DNA of 64,000 bases, from the NCBI GenBank assembly GCA_026129095.1, contig JAHCIT010000003.1, positions 310,001 through 374,000 of the forward strand. The letters run 5' to 3'. The position numbers and the translations under genes are program-made. Numbering within the stretch: position 1 is the stretch's first letter; every line of letters starts with the position of its first letter. The notes under the pieces are model-generated. The model did no database searches, was not told the origin of the DNA, and worked only from the letters and a program-made list of their open reading frames with translations. This DNA is from Deltaproteobacteria bacterium. GTDB taxonomy: Bacteria > JAGRBM01 > JAHCIT01. Positions 57,451 through 64,000 of the stretch are shown one piece after another.

Positions 57451-57554
57451 CGCTGATATGTCCTTTCCAGCGGGCATGAGTCCAGCGTAACCGAAATCGG
57501 AGGAAAACAATCGTGGAAAGCGCCAGTCCAAAGGCCCTGGGCCGGATTTCCTGT

Positions 57555-57764
57555 GAACTGCGTCCTAACCTGTTTGTGAGGAACGGAGCCGTCGGATATT
57601 CCCTGGTGTTCCCGTTCGACATGATTGCCGAAGGCAACAAAGACGGTGATTGGCGGGCAGCGGGTGACGACCTTGGAACCTTCTGCCTTGACCATGCCGC
57701 CGAACTCAACGAAACCGATGCGCTTATCAGGGAGTTTCTGGTGACCGCTGACAACGCAGCCTGA
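57555..57764 (+). pseudogene. Probable C-terminal remnant of a large serine recombinase
   Basis: NLFVRNGAVGYSLVFPFDMIAEG..DWRAAGDDLGTF resembles recalled recombinase tails; no catalytic domain upstream. Confidence 0.45.
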
Positions 57765-57900: not shown

Positions 57901-57969
57901 AAGCCCCCACCAACCCCTAACTATTCTTCTTTTTCCAAAGAGAAATGAATAGTTACATGGTGGGGGCTT
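57901..57969. repeat. Long imperfect inverted repeat
   Basis: AAGCCCCCACCA/TGGTGGGGGCTT outer arms; TAACTATTC/GAATAGTTA inner arms. Confidence 0.8.
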
Positions 57970-58428: not shown

Positions 58429-58562
58429 TTACCATGGCCTTTTGGGTATTTTCGTAGCCAAAAAGTCGTTGCGGAAACCAGTTGATACTCGCCCAAGTTC
58501 ACTAAAGAATTGGTGCCAAACCAGAGCGCAGCTATTTAATGCAAAGGGGGAGCGCAGGGTCC

Positions 58563-61500
58563 GTGAAACAGGCTGTTATTGAAAATCCTATCCTGAACTC
58601 CCCGTTCAAGGAGCCCGACCGGCATTTCCGTTTTACCGACGAAGGTATCACGAACGAGATCGTCGACGGCCGCCGGAACAGTACCTATTTTGTTCCGATC
58701 CCCCAGCCCAAGAGGGGCAAGAAACAGCTCTCGCTCGATACCCAGTGGACTGCCGACCGGATAGAGGAGAACAAGCTCGTCAACCGGATTCGCCCGCAGA
58801 TCTACAAATGGCGCCAGGGCGGATACATCGGCGTAACCCGGACCACGGCCCGGCTGCTCGAATACTGGAACGATCCCGAGCGCTCCAAGCGGCTCTTCTT
58901 CTGCCAGATCGAAGCGCTTGAAACCGCCATCTACATCACCGAAGTCGCCAGCAAGTACGATCCCTGGATCGAGAACGAGCTTCGGCACGCAAGCGAAGAG
59001 GCTAACCCGCTCCTCTTCCGGATCGCGTTCAAGATGGCGACTGGCAGCGGCAAAACGGTCGTCATGGCGATGCTCATTGCCTGGCAGGCGTTGAACAAGA
59101 TCACCAATTCCCAGGATGCACGGTTCTCCGACGCCTTCCTGCTTGTCGCGCCGGGTATCACGATCCGGGATCGGCTTCGGGTGCTGCTGCCCAGTGAACC
59201 GGACAACTACTACCGTGAACGGGATATCTGCCAGCCGGAAGACCGGGCTCAGCTCCAGAAAGCCAAAATCGTCATTACCAACTATCACACCTTTAAACGG
59301 CGCGAGATCGGCGATGTCTCGAAACTGGGCAAGGCAATCCTCAAGTCAGAAGCGTTTACTGAGACGCCTGCCCAGATGGTTCGCCGCGTTTGCAGGGAGC
59401 TGGGGAACAAGAAGAATCTCATCGTCATCAATGACGAGGCACACCACTGTTACCGGGAGAATGTCGCGGTCGCCGAAGAGGCCCTGTCTGGCGAAGACCG
59501 CAGGGATGCCGAAGAACGGGCCGAAGCGGCCCGTATCTGGATCAGCGGCCTGGAGGCGGTGAAACAGAAGTTGGGCGTTCGGGCTGTCTACGACCTGTCG
59601 GCGACCCCGTTTTTCCTGCGCGGATCCGGTTATCCGGAAGGCACGCTGTTCCCGTGGGTAGTGTCTGATTTTTCGCTCATCGACGCCATCGAGAGCGGGA
59701 TTGTGAAGATCCCTCGTGTGCCGGTCGCCGACGATTCCATGGTCGGCGAACAGCCCACCTATCGCGACCTCTGGCTCCACATCCGGGAAAACCAGCTGCT
59801 CCCGAAGAAAGGCCGTGCCGAAACCGAACGGAAAGGCGCGCCCGAGCTGCCCATGGGACTGGAGGGTGCGATCCGGAGCCTCTACGACCACTATAAGAAG
59901 TATTACGAGACGTGGGAGCAGGATAAACAGGCGCAGCTTGCGGGGCGCACGCCGCCTGTATTTATCGTCGTCTGTGCGAATACGGCCATTTCAAAACTGG
60001 TCTACGACTACATCTCTGGCTGGGACACCGGAAAAACGACTCCCGCTGGCTCGCCGATCTGGGCAGACGGCGCACTACCGCTATTCAGTAATACGAAAGA
60101 CGGCCAGCCGGGCGGTCATCAGAACACGATTCTCGTGGACAGCAGCCAGCTCGAATCGGGCGAACCGCTGAAGGACGATTTCAAGAAGCTAGCGGCCCGT
60201 GAGATCGAGGATTTCAAGCACGAGTACGCGAGACGGCATCACCAGAACGCCGAAGATGTGACCGACGGCGACATCCTCCGCGAGGTGATGAACACGGTCG
60301 GCAAGCCTGGCAAACTGGGCGAGAAAGTCCGGTGCGTGGTGTCGGTATCCATGCTCACGGAAGGCTGGGACACCAACACCGTCACCCATATCCTGGGCGT
60401 GCGGGCGTTCAGCACACAGCTTCTGTGCGAGCAGGTGGTGGGCCGCGGACTCCGCCGGATGAGCTATGCGGAGAACACCGAAGGCAAGTTCGAGCCTGAA
60501 TACGCCGAAGTCTACGGCGTCCCGTTCTCGTTCATCCCGACGGTGGCGAAACCGGCACTCTCCCTGATGCTGAAGCGCACGCGGGTTCACGCCATCGAGG
60601 ACCGGCGTGAGCAATGCGAGATCACGTTCCCCCGTCTTGAAGGCTACCGGTACGACCTGCCCGGAGAAAAACTCACGGCCCGATTCGACGAAAAGGCCCG
60701 AATGTCCGTCTCGACGCAGGATGTGCCGTCGTTCACGGAAGTACAGCCCATCGTCGGCGAGGGAAGCGTTCACACGCAGGAAGATCTGAAGTCCCGCCGC
60801 GAACAGGAGGTCGCCTTCCTGCTGGCCAAGCTGGTGCTTGAGAAATATTTCCGGCAGGACGGCGAGATCCAGAAGGACCGCCCGGCCGAGCACCGGTTCG
60901 ACTCGTCCGTCCAGGCGTGGCTCTTCCCGCAGGTGCTCCGGATCGCGCGGCAGTGGATGGAGCAGTGTCTCCAGCTCAAGGACGACACCTTTCCGCAACT
61001 GCTCCTGCTGATCCAGCTTGCGCACGAAGCCTCGGACAAGATCTACGGGGCAATCGTCCGGTCGGCTGACGGAGAAAAGCGGATCGTTCCGCGCCTGAAG
61101 CCTTTCGACACGGTGGGCAGCACGGCAATCGTCGATTTCGATACGTCCAAAGAGGTCTGGACGACCGATCCCGCCAAGTGCCACGTCTCGCATGTGTCGG
61201 CCGACAGCGGCTGGGAGCAGAAGATGGCCCAGTCACTGGAGACGATGGACGAGGTGGTCTCCTACGTGAAGAACCAGGGGCTCAACTTCACGATACCCTA
61301 CCTGATAAACGGTCAGGAGAAGAACTACGTTCCGGACTTCATCGTCCGTATCCGTGACGAGGCCGGCATAGAGCCGCTCAACCTGATTGTCGAGGTCACC
61401 GGCCAGAACAAGAAGGACAAGGAGCAGAAGGTCGCCACCGCCCGCGACCTCTGGATACCCGCGGTCAACAATCACGACGGGTTTGGGCGTTGGGGGTTCA

Positions 61501-61583
61501 TTGAAATCAGGGATCCTTGGAATGCGAAGACCGAAATCAGAGAATTCCTGCAACGGTACCAAGGCGCTGGAGTCGCCGCGTAA
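58563..61583 (+). CDS. res: Type III restriction-modification Res subunit (SF2 helicase plus C-terminal nuclease; BPTD_3080-like)
   Basis: IENPILNSPF, KMATGSGKT, NDEAHH, SATP, MLTEGWD, QVVGRGLRR, YVPDFIV..VEVTG. Confidence 0.9.
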   Translation: MKQAVIENPILNSPFKEPDRHFRFTDEGITNEIVDGRRNSTYFVPIPQPKRGKKQLSLDTQWTADRIEENKLVNRIRPQIYKWRQGGYIGVTRTTARLLEYWNDPERSKRLFFCQIEALETAIYITEVASKYDPWIENELRHASEEANPLLFRIAFKMATGSGKTVVMAMLIAWQALNKITNSQDARFSDAFLLVAPGITIRDRLRVLLPSEPDNYYRERDICQPEDRAQLQKAKIVITNYHTFKRREIGDVSKLGKAILKSEAFTETPAQMVRRVCRELGNKKNLIVINDEAHHCYRENVAVAEEALSGEDRRDAEERAEAARIWISGLEAVKQKLGVRAVYDLSATPFFLRGSGYPEGTLFPWVVSDFSLIDAIESGIVKIPRVPVADDSMVGEQPTYRDLWLHIRENQLLPKKGRAETERKGAPELPMGLEGAIRSLYDHYKKYYETWEQDKQAQLAGRTPPVFIVVCANTAISKLVYDYISGWDTGKTTPAGSPIWADGALPLFSNTKDGQPGGHQNTILVDSSQLESGEPLKDDFKKLAAREIEDFKHEYARRHHQNAEDVTDGDILREVMNTVGKPGKLGEKVRCVVSVSMLTEGWDTNTVTHILGVRAFSTQLLCEQVVGRGLRRMSYAENTEGKFEPEYAEVYGVPFSFIPTVAKPALSLMLKRTRVHAIEDRREQCEITFPRLEGYRYDLPGEKLTARFDEKARMSVSTQDVPSFTEVQPIVGEGSVHTQEDLKSRREQEVAFLLAKLVLEKYFRQDGEIQKDRPAEHRFDSSVQAWLFPQVLRIARQWMEQCLQLKDDTFPQLLLLIQLAHEASDKIYGAIVRSADGEKRIVPRLKPFDTVGSTAIVDFDTSKEVWTTDPAKCHVSHVSADSGWEQKMAQSLETMDEVVSYVKNQGLNFTIPYLINGQEKNYVPDFIVRIRDEAGIEPLNLIVEVTGQNKKDKEQKVATARDLWIPAVNNHDGFGRWGFIEIRDPWNAKTEIREFLQRYQGAGVAA

Positions 61584-61592
61584 GAGATTACG

Positions 61593-63395
61593 ATGAGCAC
61601 CAAAGAAACCACTATCCAAGTATCGCCGAGGATATTTGACCATCTCGGCCTCGCAGCATACGAGAGTCTCAAAAAATGCTTGGCTGAATTGGCAGCCAAT
61701 TCATATGACGCCGACGCCACCGAAGTGCGAATACACGTTCCAGTACAGTTGGAGGGAGGTTCGGTCATTAAGGTCACTGATAATGGCGAAGGAATGACCG
61801 CCGATCAGATCGAAAAGTCCTATCTTTTTATCGGGCGGGATCGGCGCACGTTGGGGCAACGAACATCAGGCACCAAATCAGGTAGGCCTAGATTAGTTAT
61901 TGGGAGTAAGGGGATCGGTAAGCTCGCGGGCTTTGGTGTGTCATCTCAACTCCGATTGATATCAGTTCGCACAGGCATGAAGTCCACAGTCACTCTCGAT
62001 CGGCATCATTTCGACGATCTTAAAACCCTTGCAGATCAGAAAGTCGTAATCGAGACAGCGCCTACGGATGCAGCGGATGGCACATCTGTCGAACTTCATA
62101 ATCCCAATTCTCAACTCTCCGTCCCCGATGAAGCTACTATTCGCCGACACCTATTTCGTGTTTTGCCGAATACCCCGGATTTTCGTGTCTACGTGAACGA
62201 AAAGGAATGTACAGCTGACGCTCTTGAAGGGACGCGAACACCATTTGACCAAGAAATTCCGAGCGTCGGGAGAGTACATGGTTTCTATGTAATCGCAGGG
62301 AACCGACTACCGAATTTTGGTATGGCCGTCCGGGTGCGGGGTCGTTTGGTTAAGGAGCCAAATCTTTTCGGCATTGACACGACGAAACATTGGTTCTTTT
62401 CCACGAACCGGATTTACGGTGAAATCAACGCTGATTTTCTTGATCCCGAGGATGGAGAAAATCGCGCACATGATGTCATCAATACTAGTCGAGATGGGTT
62501 CTTGGAGGATTCTCCGGTCGTCCAGAAGTTTGAGGAGTGGGTTCGGGAGTTTTTAATAAGAATATTCAGAGCGATCGAAGACGCCGAAGAAAAAAAGCGT
62601 GAATCAGTTGTTTTAAAAAATCCTGAATATGAAGCGAGACTGAACAAACTTCCGGCCCATGTTAAATCAACCGCAGAGCGTGTTGCTCGAACAGTATTTT
62701 CTAAACTCAAAAGCGTTGACCAAGACCAAGCCTCAGAGCTGATCGATTGGATATTGAAATATTACGAGTCGAACGTCTTGCGTGAGTTGATAAGTGCTAT
62801 CGTGAAGGCCGACACGAAAGATGTCGCAATATTGTCGGAGATGATAAGAGAGTGGGGCTTACAGCAGGTCAATGGGGTTGTTGAGCATGTCAAGGATCAG
62901 ATCAGCATCATAAAGCGGCTTGAAGATTTGATCTCCGACGACACGGCGGAAGAAATAGATTTGCATAAACTCGTTGAGAATAACCTTTGGCTAGTTCGGC
63001 AGGGTTTGGAGCTTTGGAGTTCTGACAAACCACTAAAAACTGTTTTGGATAAAAAAGTTGACGAAAATTATAAGGACTACGCAGATATTCGCCCGGATAT
63101 CGTATGTCGTTCAAGAGATGAAGGGCGACAAGCCGTTGTTCTTGAATTCAAACGCCCCAAGGAAAAGATCAGACCAGAACATATTACCCAAGCCATGACG
63201 TACGAAGGGATTATTGCGGCCCACAGACCTGGCATAATCTTTGAGACCTACGTGATTGGTCGGCAATACGATCCCGCTGTTCTTGCCGTGAAGGAAAAAC
63301 AAGCGAAGGCTGGGAACCATCTAGTTTCCTATGAACACCTGCTTCAGGGAGCTCGGAACCGCTTTGAAACAATCTTAGAATTACTCGGCCAGTAG
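61593..63395 (+). CDS. GHKL (MORC/HSP90-like) ATPase fused to a PD-(D/E)xK nuclease
   Basis: ELAANSYDADA, DNGEGM, GSKGIGK, GTSV; C-terminal RPDIV..LEFKRP..QAMTY. Confidence 0.85.
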   Translation: MSTKETTIQVSPRIFDHLGLAAYESLKKCLAELAANSYDADATEVRIHVPVQLEGGSVIKVTDNGEGMTADQIEKSYLFIGRDRRTLGQRTSGTKSGRPRLVIGSKGIGKLAGFGVSSQLRLISVRTGMKSTVTLDRHHFDDLKTLADQKVVIETAPTDAADGTSVELHNPNSQLSVPDEATIRRHLFRVLPNTPDFRVYVNEKECTADALEGTRTPFDQEIPSVGRVHGFYVIAGNRLPNFGMAVRVRGRLVKEPNLFGIDTTKHWFFSTNRIYGEINADFLDPEDGENRAHDVINTSRDGFLEDSPVVQKFEEWVREFLIRIFRAIEDAEEKKRESVVLKNPEYEARLNKLPAHVKSTAERVARTVFSKLKSVDQDQASELIDWILKYYESNVLRELISAIVKADTKDVAILSEMIREWGLQQVNGVVEHVKDQISIIKRLEDLISDDTAEEIDLHKLVENNLWLVRQGLELWSSDKPLKTVLDKKVDENYKDYADIRPDIVCRSRDEGRQAVVLEFKRPKEKIRPEHITQAMTYEGIIAAHRPGIIFETYVIGRQYDPAVLAVKEKQAKAGNHLVSYEHLLQGARNRFETILELLGQ

Positions 63396-63431
63396 TTTCC
63401 TACGCGCTCAAATTTAAGGATCACACAGTTA

Positions 63432-64000
63432 ATGCCTCCCAAGAAGACCCCAATATCCTCATCCTCTCCGTCTCTACCGATCGAGTCCGTACGTCACAAG
63501 GACAAGCGGGCGAACATCCCGACGGAGGAGCTGAAGGATTTCATCAAGGACGACGAGAAGGCTCCGAAGTCCATGCTCTACCCGCGCGATCCGTCGCTGG
63601 ATCCGCAGTTGGTCTGGAAGGGGAAGGACGAGCAGGACGCCAAGGACCTCGAAGTGCCGGTGGTGCCGGTTTACATACAGGAGAAGATCCATCCGCAGGC
63701 GCTGATCGAGGATTTCCGCAGTTCCGCCAGAACGGGCGGGCCGGCGCAGGCGTCTCTGTTCAGCGACTTCAACGGGATCGCCTTTGAAGACCTGATCGAG
63801 TTCTACCAGCACGAGCAGAACTGGACGAACCGCATGATCCTGGGCGATTCACTACTCGTGATGACATCGCTGGCCGAAAAGGAAGGGCTCAAGGGCAAGG
63901 TCCAGACGATCTTCATGGACCCGCCGTACGGCATCAAGTTCGGTTCAAACTGGCAAGTTTCAACGCGCAAGCGGGATCTAAATGATGGCAAAAGTGAGGA
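63432..64000 (+). CDS. mod: Type III R-M Mod adenine methyltransferase, N-terminal part (runs off window)
   Basis: Manual translation from ATG 63432: MPPKK..RANIPT..DPQLVWKGKD..NRMILGDSLLVM..IFMDPPYGIKFGSNW; absent from the ORF track because it has no stop in the window. Confidence 0.9.
   Translation, partial: MPPKKTPISSSSPSLPIESVRHKDKRANIPTEELKDFIKDDEKAPKSMLYPRDPSLDPQLVWKGKDEQDAKDLEVPVVPVYIQEKIHPQALIEDFRSSARTGGPAQASLFSDFNGIAFEDLIEFYQHEQNWTNRMILGDSLLVMTSLAEKEGLKGKVQTIFMDPPYGIKFGSNWQVSTRKRDLNDGKSE

Follow-up and report, generated by a model that had tools for sequence, protein, structure and literature searches.

The architecture closest to the gene described here, a GHKL ATPase and S5 domain joined to a C-terminal restriction-fold nuclease with an E-D-ExK active site, was described in 2008 as paraMORC3 by Iyer, Abhiman and Aravind (PMC2292703). 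These proteins are sporadic and mobile and occur both in restriction-modification (R-M) loci and as standalone genes; for the versions outside R-M contexts, mismatch repair was raised as a possibility (PMC2292703). Gu et al. define type 1D Shedu as HATPase_c_3+N24+N50+DUF4263 and report 602 of 5,499 Shedu genes inside R-M operons, those of type III included (10.1101/2023.08.10.552793). VcSduA, a type I-D Shedu, is a tested single-gene anti-phage system; it protects alone, needs both the ATPase Glu and the nuclease Lys, and restricts T1-like Drexlerviridae, and what its GHKL clamp senses is presented as a hypothesis (PMC12137116). The closest named family by score comprises the BbrUII/HgiDII restriction enzymes (NF050001), which have a cognate methylase.

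Here we describe a gene (the insert) located between res and mod of a type III R-M operon in the window, the whole 64,000-nucleotide stretch of DNA analyzed. The insert has the paraMORC3 architecture, since classed as type 1D Shedu. As a system, its locus is not new, and the suggestion of a sequence-only reading that it is an undescribed one was not supported, given the validated member VcSduA; the association of MORC-like ATPases with R-M loci, which that reading gave as known, and the presence of Shedu genes inside R-M operons had been reported (see above). The reading that we favor, with a probability of about 0.6, takes the insert for a DNA-targeting defence nuclease that is complete in itself and belongs to the paraMORC3/type 1D (GHKL) Shedu kind; a variable res-mod slot would carry it as a passenger.

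Locus organization and base composition

The three genes follow one another in the order res, insert, mod on one strand (Table 1). An in-frame ATG at 58539 is an alternative to the GTG start of res. GC content was 0.471 for the insert (GC3, 0.47), 0.596 for res (GC3, 0.78), and 0.575 for mod (GC3, 0.79), and nowhere else in the window does a 1.8-kb stretch have so low a GC content (window mean, 0.627; standard deviation, 0.040). The layout, spacings and AT richness first read from the sequence were thus borne out. At 26 of 27 loci of relatives, the gene of the insert family was AT-richer than the sequence on either side, and none of these 27 loci contained this res or mod. The proposal of separate acquisition was upheld. 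Direct repeats flanking the insert were absent from the 20 largest of 27 repeat families listed, the sole tRNA detected in the window lies at 21.5 kb, and promoter and terminator scans gave results no better than chance.

Table 1. Features of the res-insert-mod locus (window coordinates; aa numbering is that of the insert product)
Feature	Coordinates	Strand	Evidence
res, type III Res of the BPTD_3080 family; SF2 ATPase with MATGSGKT and DEAH motifs, C-terminal PD-(D/E)xK domain	58563..61583	+	GTG start; NCBIfam NF046055; Pfam ResIII, RE_endonuc; 17-relative alignment
Spacer res/insert, 9 nt	61584..61592	+	Sequence
Insert, paraMORC3-type GHKL ATPase-nuclease, 600 aa, AT-rich cargo gene	61593..63395	+	Pfam HATPase_c_3; NF050001; paraMORC3-annotated GenBank gene
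GHKL + S5 ATPase module, MORC-like, aa 18-330	61644..62582	+	AF2 model; VIA-align; Foldseek
Linker, all-helical, about aa 331-448	62583..62936	+	Secondary structure of model
Shedu-related PD-(D/E)xK nuclease domain (E454, D502, E518, K520, Q533, Y537)	62937..63392	+	Model; VIA-align; Foldseek; profile
Spacer insert/mod, 36 nt	63396..63431	+	Sequence
mod, 5' part with DPPY motif, ends at window edge	63432..64000	+	PADLOC MTase_III PDLC03632

The res product passed the NF046055 cutoff (1174 bits; cutoff, 800) and matched both Pfam domains. The 189 aa of Mod within the window matched the PADLOC model with an E value of 2.6e-50, and this N-terminal part was 41 to 74% identical to Mod of related operons. 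Order and sequence of res and mod match plasmid-borne operons (identity of up to 62% for Res and 74% for the Mod N terminus), and the identity of the cargo gene is the sole difference between the R-M genes of the window and those of the BPTD_3080 family (NF046055).

The insert joins a MORC-like ATPase to a Shedu-related nuclease

The ATPase module of the insert passed Pfam HATPase_c_3 (71 bits; cutoff, 25). Its model was most similar to MORC3 (VIA-align Z, 22.7; rmsd, 3.3; 281 residues aligned), followed by MORC2 (Z, 21.8) and SMCHD1 (Z, 19.8), and it covers 281 to 297 residues of these three modules, which places an S5 domain after the GHKL domain. Foldseek retrieved MORC2/3 at E values of about 1e-13. 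A sequence search of the PDB returned MutL/MORC N termini and chance helical matches only.

The GHKL motifs are complete (E32/N36, D63-G65-G67, G104-K106-G107-G109-K110, and G163-T164). Among the best 119 non-self matches (49 to 56% identical), E32, N36, D63, G65, G104, K106, G107, G109, and G163 are invariant, G67 and K110 are each present in 118, and T164 is present in 108. Within the linker, aa 406 to 425 were modeled with low confidence.

The nuclease residues E454, H458, N464, W466, P501-D502, E518-K520-P522, and Q533-Y537 are likewise invariant in all 119 relatives. The model of aa 425 to 600 (pLDDT, 92.8) had Shedu proteins as its top three VIA-align matches (Z, 10.5, 9.6, and 9.5) and as its first Foldseek match (E, 5e-4). 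Motifs, helical linker and MORC-Shedu fusion are therefore as the sequence-only reading had them. A dimer prediction for aa 305 to 600 scored 0.02 and was not used as evidence.

The nuclease model also neighbors NucS/EndoMS (Z, 8.0). This similarity, the 2008 mismatch-repair suggestion for versions outside R-M loci, and five loci (L002, L005, L008, L013, and L019) where no defence-type or mobile neighbor was found among the scanned ORFs are what one would expect of a mobile MutL-like endonuclease that serves repair or housekeeping and not defence. We consider such a role very improbable, given the patchy spread of relatives over unrelated phyla, the foreign composition at 26 of 27 loci, the frequent breakage of the gene, and the tested anti-phage activity of a relative with the same architecture.

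At the level of sequence, the kinship with Shedu was detected by profile comparison but not by the curated domain model. A profile comparison with a catalogued Shedu gave a match (probability, 91; E, 9e-7; 182 columns), although a profile of the narrow insert clade alone gave none (probability, 1.8). By motif order and this alignment, E454, D502, E518-K520, and Q533 correspond to Shedu motifs I to IV (E, D, E-x-K, and Q). Against SduA_C (DUF4263), the insert scored 16.1 bits, below the cutoff of 27 (a control Shedu scored 107.8 bits). Three of 24 scanned relatives (P0157, L021, and L045) passed that cutoff, with matches beginning at aa 439 to 443; together with the profile match, they support Shedu homology of the insert. 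The start of these matches resembles the N-terminal length in 12 of the 19 GHKL entries of the Shedu catalogue, which is 437 to 443 aa.

Position of the insert clade

The insert shares with type 1D Shedu its domain order (10.1101/2023.08.10.552793). The N-terminal length of type 1D equals that of the 585-aa sister clade of the insert, and some of its members pass SduA_C; the insert itself falls below this cutoff and has a shorter motif II loop than the Shedu aligned in the profile comparison. Like VcSduA, it holds a GHKL ATPase, a middle domain, and a Shedu-type nuclease in one gene, and the sequences of the VcSduA paper that were inspected share its nuclease motifs (E-DLH, NLWL, SD, PD, EFKRP, Q--Y, and SY). 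The VcSduA subfamily is longer (about 660 to 690 aa), and its ATPase has GKGFGR/KGIGR where the insert has KGIGK, a motif with no occurrence in the paper's hit tables (543 hits; motif search only, no direct alignment). As far as tested, the insert thus appears, from its motifs, to lie outside the VcSduA subfamily. No structural difference separates it from paraMORC3, of which it represents one unmodeled clade. The comparison for full-length homology to paraMORC3 used XSB42653.1, annotated as such by its depositors (E, 2e-23; 24% identity over 569 columns).

The clade is large and tightly conserved: it holds more than 100 clusters, with identities of about 50%, and fell below the cutoff of every nuclease or system model tested from Pfam, NCBIfam, and PADLOC. 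In a tree of 76 rows built by a quick method, the joins between major clades had supports of only 84 to 92, and we therefore claim no direction of evolution. Five of 17 close loci had a frameshifted or partial gene (decay or assembly error). The literature covered, which mostly excluded subscription journals, held no description of the insert clade or of a type III cargo slot beyond the papers cited.

Relation to type II restriction enzymes

The best family match of the insert was to NF050001, with which it is homologous over its full length, ATPase and nuclease included (188.9 bits, matched at both ends). The family was also matched by 79 of 81 relatives, and two PADLOC REase_II models were also among the best matches. 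The insert could accordingly be an orphan type II-like enzyme of the HgiDII/BbrUII kind, specific for a site and harmless to its host through an unlinked methylase or site rarity. Five clade-specific invariant S5 residues (R247, R249, R251, H266, and F269) could read bases, and a neighboring branch carries methylases beside the gene (L016 and L020) or fragments of one (L018); further distant relatives pair with methylases at L047, L049, L050, L052, and L053.

We nevertheless regard this explanation as unlikely. The score of the insert is far under the NF050001 cutoff of 550, which none of 76 other relatives reached either (best, 409). The insert clade, unlike the BbrUII/HgiDII enzymes, is mostly without a methylase: in the locus sequence examined, none was present at 16 of 17 close loci, and the methylase at the remaining locus is part of a separate NgoMIV-type operon encoded on the opposite strand. 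Several loci are on short contigs, so an unlinked methylase is possible. Beside the insert itself lies a type III Mod, which has a Res of its own, and not a cognate type II methylase. At L016, the relative lies between the methylase and a separate REase_II gene, so it may be cargo even there. A short recognition site avoided by all hosts was also sought: every contiguous word of 4 to 6 bp occurred in the pooled sequence (247 kb) of 13 hosts in which the gene is intact. This speaks against an enzyme that cuts constitutively at a common site of that length. GTCGAC, which we take to be the HgiDII/BbrUII site, occurred in 11 of the 13 host sequences.

A cargo slot between res and mod

Eight of 16 related operons had the res-mod junction filled by other, unrelated genes, and none of the 16 held GHKL cargo. 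The idea that the insert guards or backs up this particular R-M complex was not supported. A conserved three-gene system was rejected on the same counts, together with the 27 relative loci that lack res and mod. Across the 17 close loci, no neighboring gene was conserved, and the genomic evidence points to a single gene with no obligate partner. A nuclease, toxin-antitoxin, or defence-type gene lay within three ORFs in 9 of these 17 loci, a count made with no background control.

Other operons carry cargo with a GmrSD domain (L038) or a NOV_C domain (L034) in this slot, and one relative (L022) has an SRA-HNH gene nearby. This company would suit a type IV-like, modification-dependent nuclease acting on phage DNA that is methylated or hypermodified and gets past Res-Mod. 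Such an enzyme would back up Res-Mod through its choice of target, not through a physical link, and would need no methylase. We rate this possibility slightly lower than that of an orphan type II enzyme: family and structure searches detected no modification-reading domain in the insert, and the T1-like Drexlerviridae restricted by VcSduA are not known to be a set defined by modified DNA.

Cooperation with Res-Mod, in which the insert would be a third component (as a guard, by taking the Mod mark as self, or by cleaving for a Res that lacks its lysine), seems improbable. It would fit the tight spacing in one operon, the recurrence of relatives in or beside type I and II R-M operons (L021, L016, and L020), and motif III of Res, which reads E-V-T-G, with Thr where Lys is expected, in an alignment with 17 plasmid relatives. 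Ser replaces that Lys in 9 of the 17, however, and 6 of these 9 operons are cargo-free, so replacement of a dead Res nuclease by the insert was rejected as a general rule. The window Res and 7 of the 9 Ser-type relatives, versus none of 8 canonical ones, have a Lys in the next helix, which suggests from sequence that the lysine has shifted, rather than that the enzyme is dead. The lack of this res or mod at relative loci and of GHKL cargo in related operons also counts against cooperation, as does, weakly, the absence of 1051- to 3000-aa fusions to R-M subunits among 7,994 longer candidates. In its most specific form, a long shot, the GHKL nuclease would be a recruited third subunit: Res, with Thr for its catalytic Lys, would find unmethylated sites together with Mod and the ATP-gated paraMORC3 protein would cleave, or the insert would fire when Res-Mod is inhibited. 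If true, the operon would be a type III system whose effector is exchangeable and comes from the cargo slot between res and mod.

Proposed mode of action and implications

A defence role, as the sequence-only reading had proposed, is judged likely. As a self-contained passenger nuclease, the insert would probably take only transcription from the res-mod operon. If it works as GHKL clamps and VcSduA do, it would form a dimer whose N-terminal clamp closes on DNA upon ATP binding; hydrolysis at E32 would then allow the active sites in the C-terminal domains to nick or cleave invader DNA, and the host cell would not be killed. Since most close relatives are without a methylase, we infer that the enzyme spares its host not through a cognate methyl mark but by responding to some property of invader DNA; one guess would be free ends or replication intermediates, to which other Shedu enzymes respond. 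The insert probably arrived when the operon recombined with a donor res-mod operon, and the left crossover may have fallen in the 3' end of res.

The novelty of the insert clade is modest: it forms a link from type II restriction enzymes of the GHKL kind to Shedu. Placed between Shedu and those GHKL restriction enzymes that are paired with a methylase, and missed by the curated models tested, the clade may show how a restriction-type enzyme dispenses with its methylase and which feature a GHKL clamp senses. The res-mod junction of the BPTD_3080 family is itself a cargo slot whose contents include defence candidates, and it offers a place to look for new defence genes.

Organization and composition of the operon

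A 600-aa GHKL ATPase-nuclease gene (the insert) lies between res and mod of a type III restriction-modification (R-M) operon. The gene order and spacing proposed in the sequence-only reading were borne out when the coordinates were re-derived from the sequence, as was the higher AT content of the insert (GC3 of 0.47, versus 0.78 in res and 0.79 in mod). Its GC content of 0.471 was the minimum among the 1.8-kb stretches of the window (mean, 0.627; standard deviation, 0.040). The hairpin 5' of res (z score of -2.9; 1 of 200 shuffles equally stable) may represent an island boundary. Across the whole window, the palindromic hexamers CTCGAG (5 observed, 27 expected), GTCGAC (5 and 21), and AAGCTT (1 and 12) were depleted, as expected for a host once exposed to type II restriction.

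Features of the R-M operon and its 5' flank
Feature	Position	Strand	Size	Remarks
ORF	57513-57764		83 aa	No match in Pfam scan
Low-GC segment	57532-58562		~1 kb	Lowered GC, about 0.53; short ORFs only
Hairpin	57901-57969			~600 nt 5' of res; perfect 12-nt outer arms; no match in Rfam
res	58563-61583	+		BPTD_3080 family, above NCBIfam cutoff
Res C-terminal domain	about 61380-61430			Thr replaces Lys of motif III
Start of low-GC3 segment	~61482 (range, 61455-61533)			Within final res codons
res-insert spacer			9 nt
Insert	61593-63395	+	600 codons
Insert-mod spacer			36 nt
mod	63432 to window end	+		In-window portion fits type III methylase model

Predicted domains of the insert protein

Pfam detected a GHKL domain and nothing else in the insert. 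Against the NCBIfam BbrUII/HgiDII restriction enzymes, the protein scored 189 bits (below the cutoff of 550), with both ends aligned. In a study by Orlowski and Bujnicki (PMC2441816), HgiDII was noted to have a GHKL domain, and its C terminus was left without assignment. In an AlphaFold2 model of the full-length insert (pLDDT, 78; pTM, 0.51), residues 18 to 343 resembled the ATPase modules of MORC3, MORC2, and SMCHD1 (Z, 19.8 to 22.7), with a predicted helical linker C-terminal to this module. The nuclease domain (residues 425 to 600) was modeled separately (pLDDT, 92.8) and compared with 48,161 chains. The three best structural matches of this model were Shedu proteins (Z of 10.5 [rmsd, 3.6; 153 aligned], 9.6, and 9.5), followed by BspD6I (8.8) and NucS (8.0); Foldseek also ranked Shedu first for the model (E = 5e-4).

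At the sequence level, the proposed likeness of the C terminus to DUF4263/Shedu held in part. A profile built from 81 insert relatives matched WP_207159509.1 (probability, 91; E = 9e-7; 182 columns), which is a type 1A protein in the Shedu catalogue (Gu et al., PMC10441436), whereas a profile from the narrow clade of the insert by itself did not. The insert scored 16 bits on SduA_C, below the cutoff of 27, which was reached by 3 of 24 relatives scanned.

Relatives of the insert and their neighborhoods

Homologs of the insert made up 903 of 8,000 scored candidates. Among the matches listed, one was identical to the insert and the other 119 shared 49 to 56% identity, with full-length alignments in almost every case. 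All 119 retained the residues predicted to be catalytic (E32, E454, D502, E518, K520, Q533, and Y537). In the HMMER library, 169 representatives matched at E values of ≤1e-30. A quick tree of 76 rows placed the insert within a 19-row clade (support, 99), with weaker deeper joins.

One scan of GTDB genomes yielded 27 loci of insert relatives, with flanks of up to 10 kb per side (shorter on short contigs). The sequence-only reading had tied the insert to type III R-M; this res or mod had a match in 0 of the 27 loci, which argues against such a tie. The full-length Mod and Res of related operons matched only a separate methylase, ~8.5 kb from a distant relative (L026). Among the 17 close loci (48 to 54% identity), one contained a methylase, part of an NgoMIV-type operon on the opposite strand, and nine had an HNH, PIN, SIR2, ABC-ATPase, or like gene within three ORFs, a count without a background control. 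Five of the 17 carried a frameshifted or partial relative, and in 26 of the 27 loci the relative was lower in GC than its flanks. Some more distant relatives adjoined a C5 methylase and Vsr (L020) or immediately followed a type I operon and lay ahead of Druantia (L021), and the one at L016 had a methylase on one side and an independent REase on the other; no methylase was present in the genes examined at L023, L024, L045, L046, and L048. Longer BbrUII-like relatives had a C5 methylase partner; one of them, a P2-like phage gene annotated in GenBank as paraMORC3, aligned to the insert across 569 columns.

In two P2-like phages (L052:3986-7034 and L053:2935-5980), paraMORC3 and the C5 methylase adjoined a replication gene in differing orientations. 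Two Nitrospira-family genomes (L008:877-2664 and L014:10001-11897) carried an insert relative at the same site by cstA; one copy is intact and the other has a frameshift. A second GHKL protein of 624 aa (L006:13903-15777), 2 kb from an insert relative and accompanied by SIR2-like and primase-like genes, did not match NF050001 at 1e-25.

Cargo between res and mod

Res matches occurred in 39 plasmid records; 17 of these were examined, and Mod was located in 16. The interval between res and mod was filled in eight of these related operons (L032 to L036, L038, L043, and L051), in no case with a GHKL protein. The cargo comprised DUF4209 (PADLOC PDC-S39), UPF0175 plus DUF3368, NOV_C, a GmrSD-domain gene plus partner, DUF3800, and, in three operons, hypothetical proteins. 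The three-gene layout of the window may recur rarely beyond the GTDB loci and plasmid operons surveyed. The hypothetical proteins of L033, L035, and L036 (139 to 307 aa), which had no Pfam or PADLOC match, and a 271-aa unknown protein beside the GmrSD-domain gene of L038 are candidates for new defense genes.

Among six cargo-bearing operons analyzed for GC3, a drop comparable to that of the window was present in three (L033, L034, and L038); it was also seen in cargo-bearing L032, an operon that is not GC-rich. Cargo-free operons showed no drop when core GC3 was ≥0.49 (0 of 4) and a slight drop when AT-rich (3 of 3). The drop near the res 3' end in some cargo-bearing operons hints, in this small sample, that cargo may be exchanged via recombination inside res.

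The Thr in motif III of the window Res is an oddity that could speak for the insert as a functional partner of Res-Mod. However, the same lysine is lost in six operons without cargo, and this explanation is barely alive. Ser or Thr replaces the lysine throughout a BPTD_3080 Res subclade (L028 to L033, L041, L042, and L044). A lysine in the helix after motif III, present in the window Res and seven of these nine relatives and in none of eight canonical Res proteins, is possibly a shifted catalytic lysine, judging from the alignment.

A probable independent nuclease of a described architecture

The insert is best read as an independent ATP-gated DNA nuclease: its fold, motifs, and conservation point this way, as do its mobility and the finding that no partner gene is fixed. 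The protein would form a dimer whose clamp closes on DNA, and cutting would depend on hydrolysis, with a trigger such as free DNA ends. No 4- to 6-bp word was missing from 13 host sequences, which, together with the lack of a methylase, favors gating over a constitutive site-specific cutter; a site-specific cutter in a host protected by an unlinked methylase is possible.

In earlier work, paraMORC3 was defined as GHKL plus S5 plus a restriction-fold nuclease, including a standalone subset (Iyer et al. 2008, PMC2292703); GHKL fusions, 19 of them listed, constitute type 1D Shedu, and 602 of 5,499 Shedu genes lie inside R-M systems of types I to IV (Gu et al., 10.1101/2023.08.10.552793, PMC10441436). 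Vibrio cholerae VcSduA was equated with paraMORC3 and was protective by itself, with cells staying viable and both active sites required (PMC12137116), and Escherichia coli Shedu senses DNA ends (Loeff et al., 10.1101/2023.08.10.552762). Nothing was found in the Tiamat preprint, PMC5829577, or PMC12707154 to alter this picture. The undescribed defense layer guarding the R-M complex that had been proposed is not supported; the insert is a known kind of gene in a known kind of context (paraMORC3/type 1D Shedu, with R-M-embedded Shedu already reported): a real feature and a new representative of an already described architecture.
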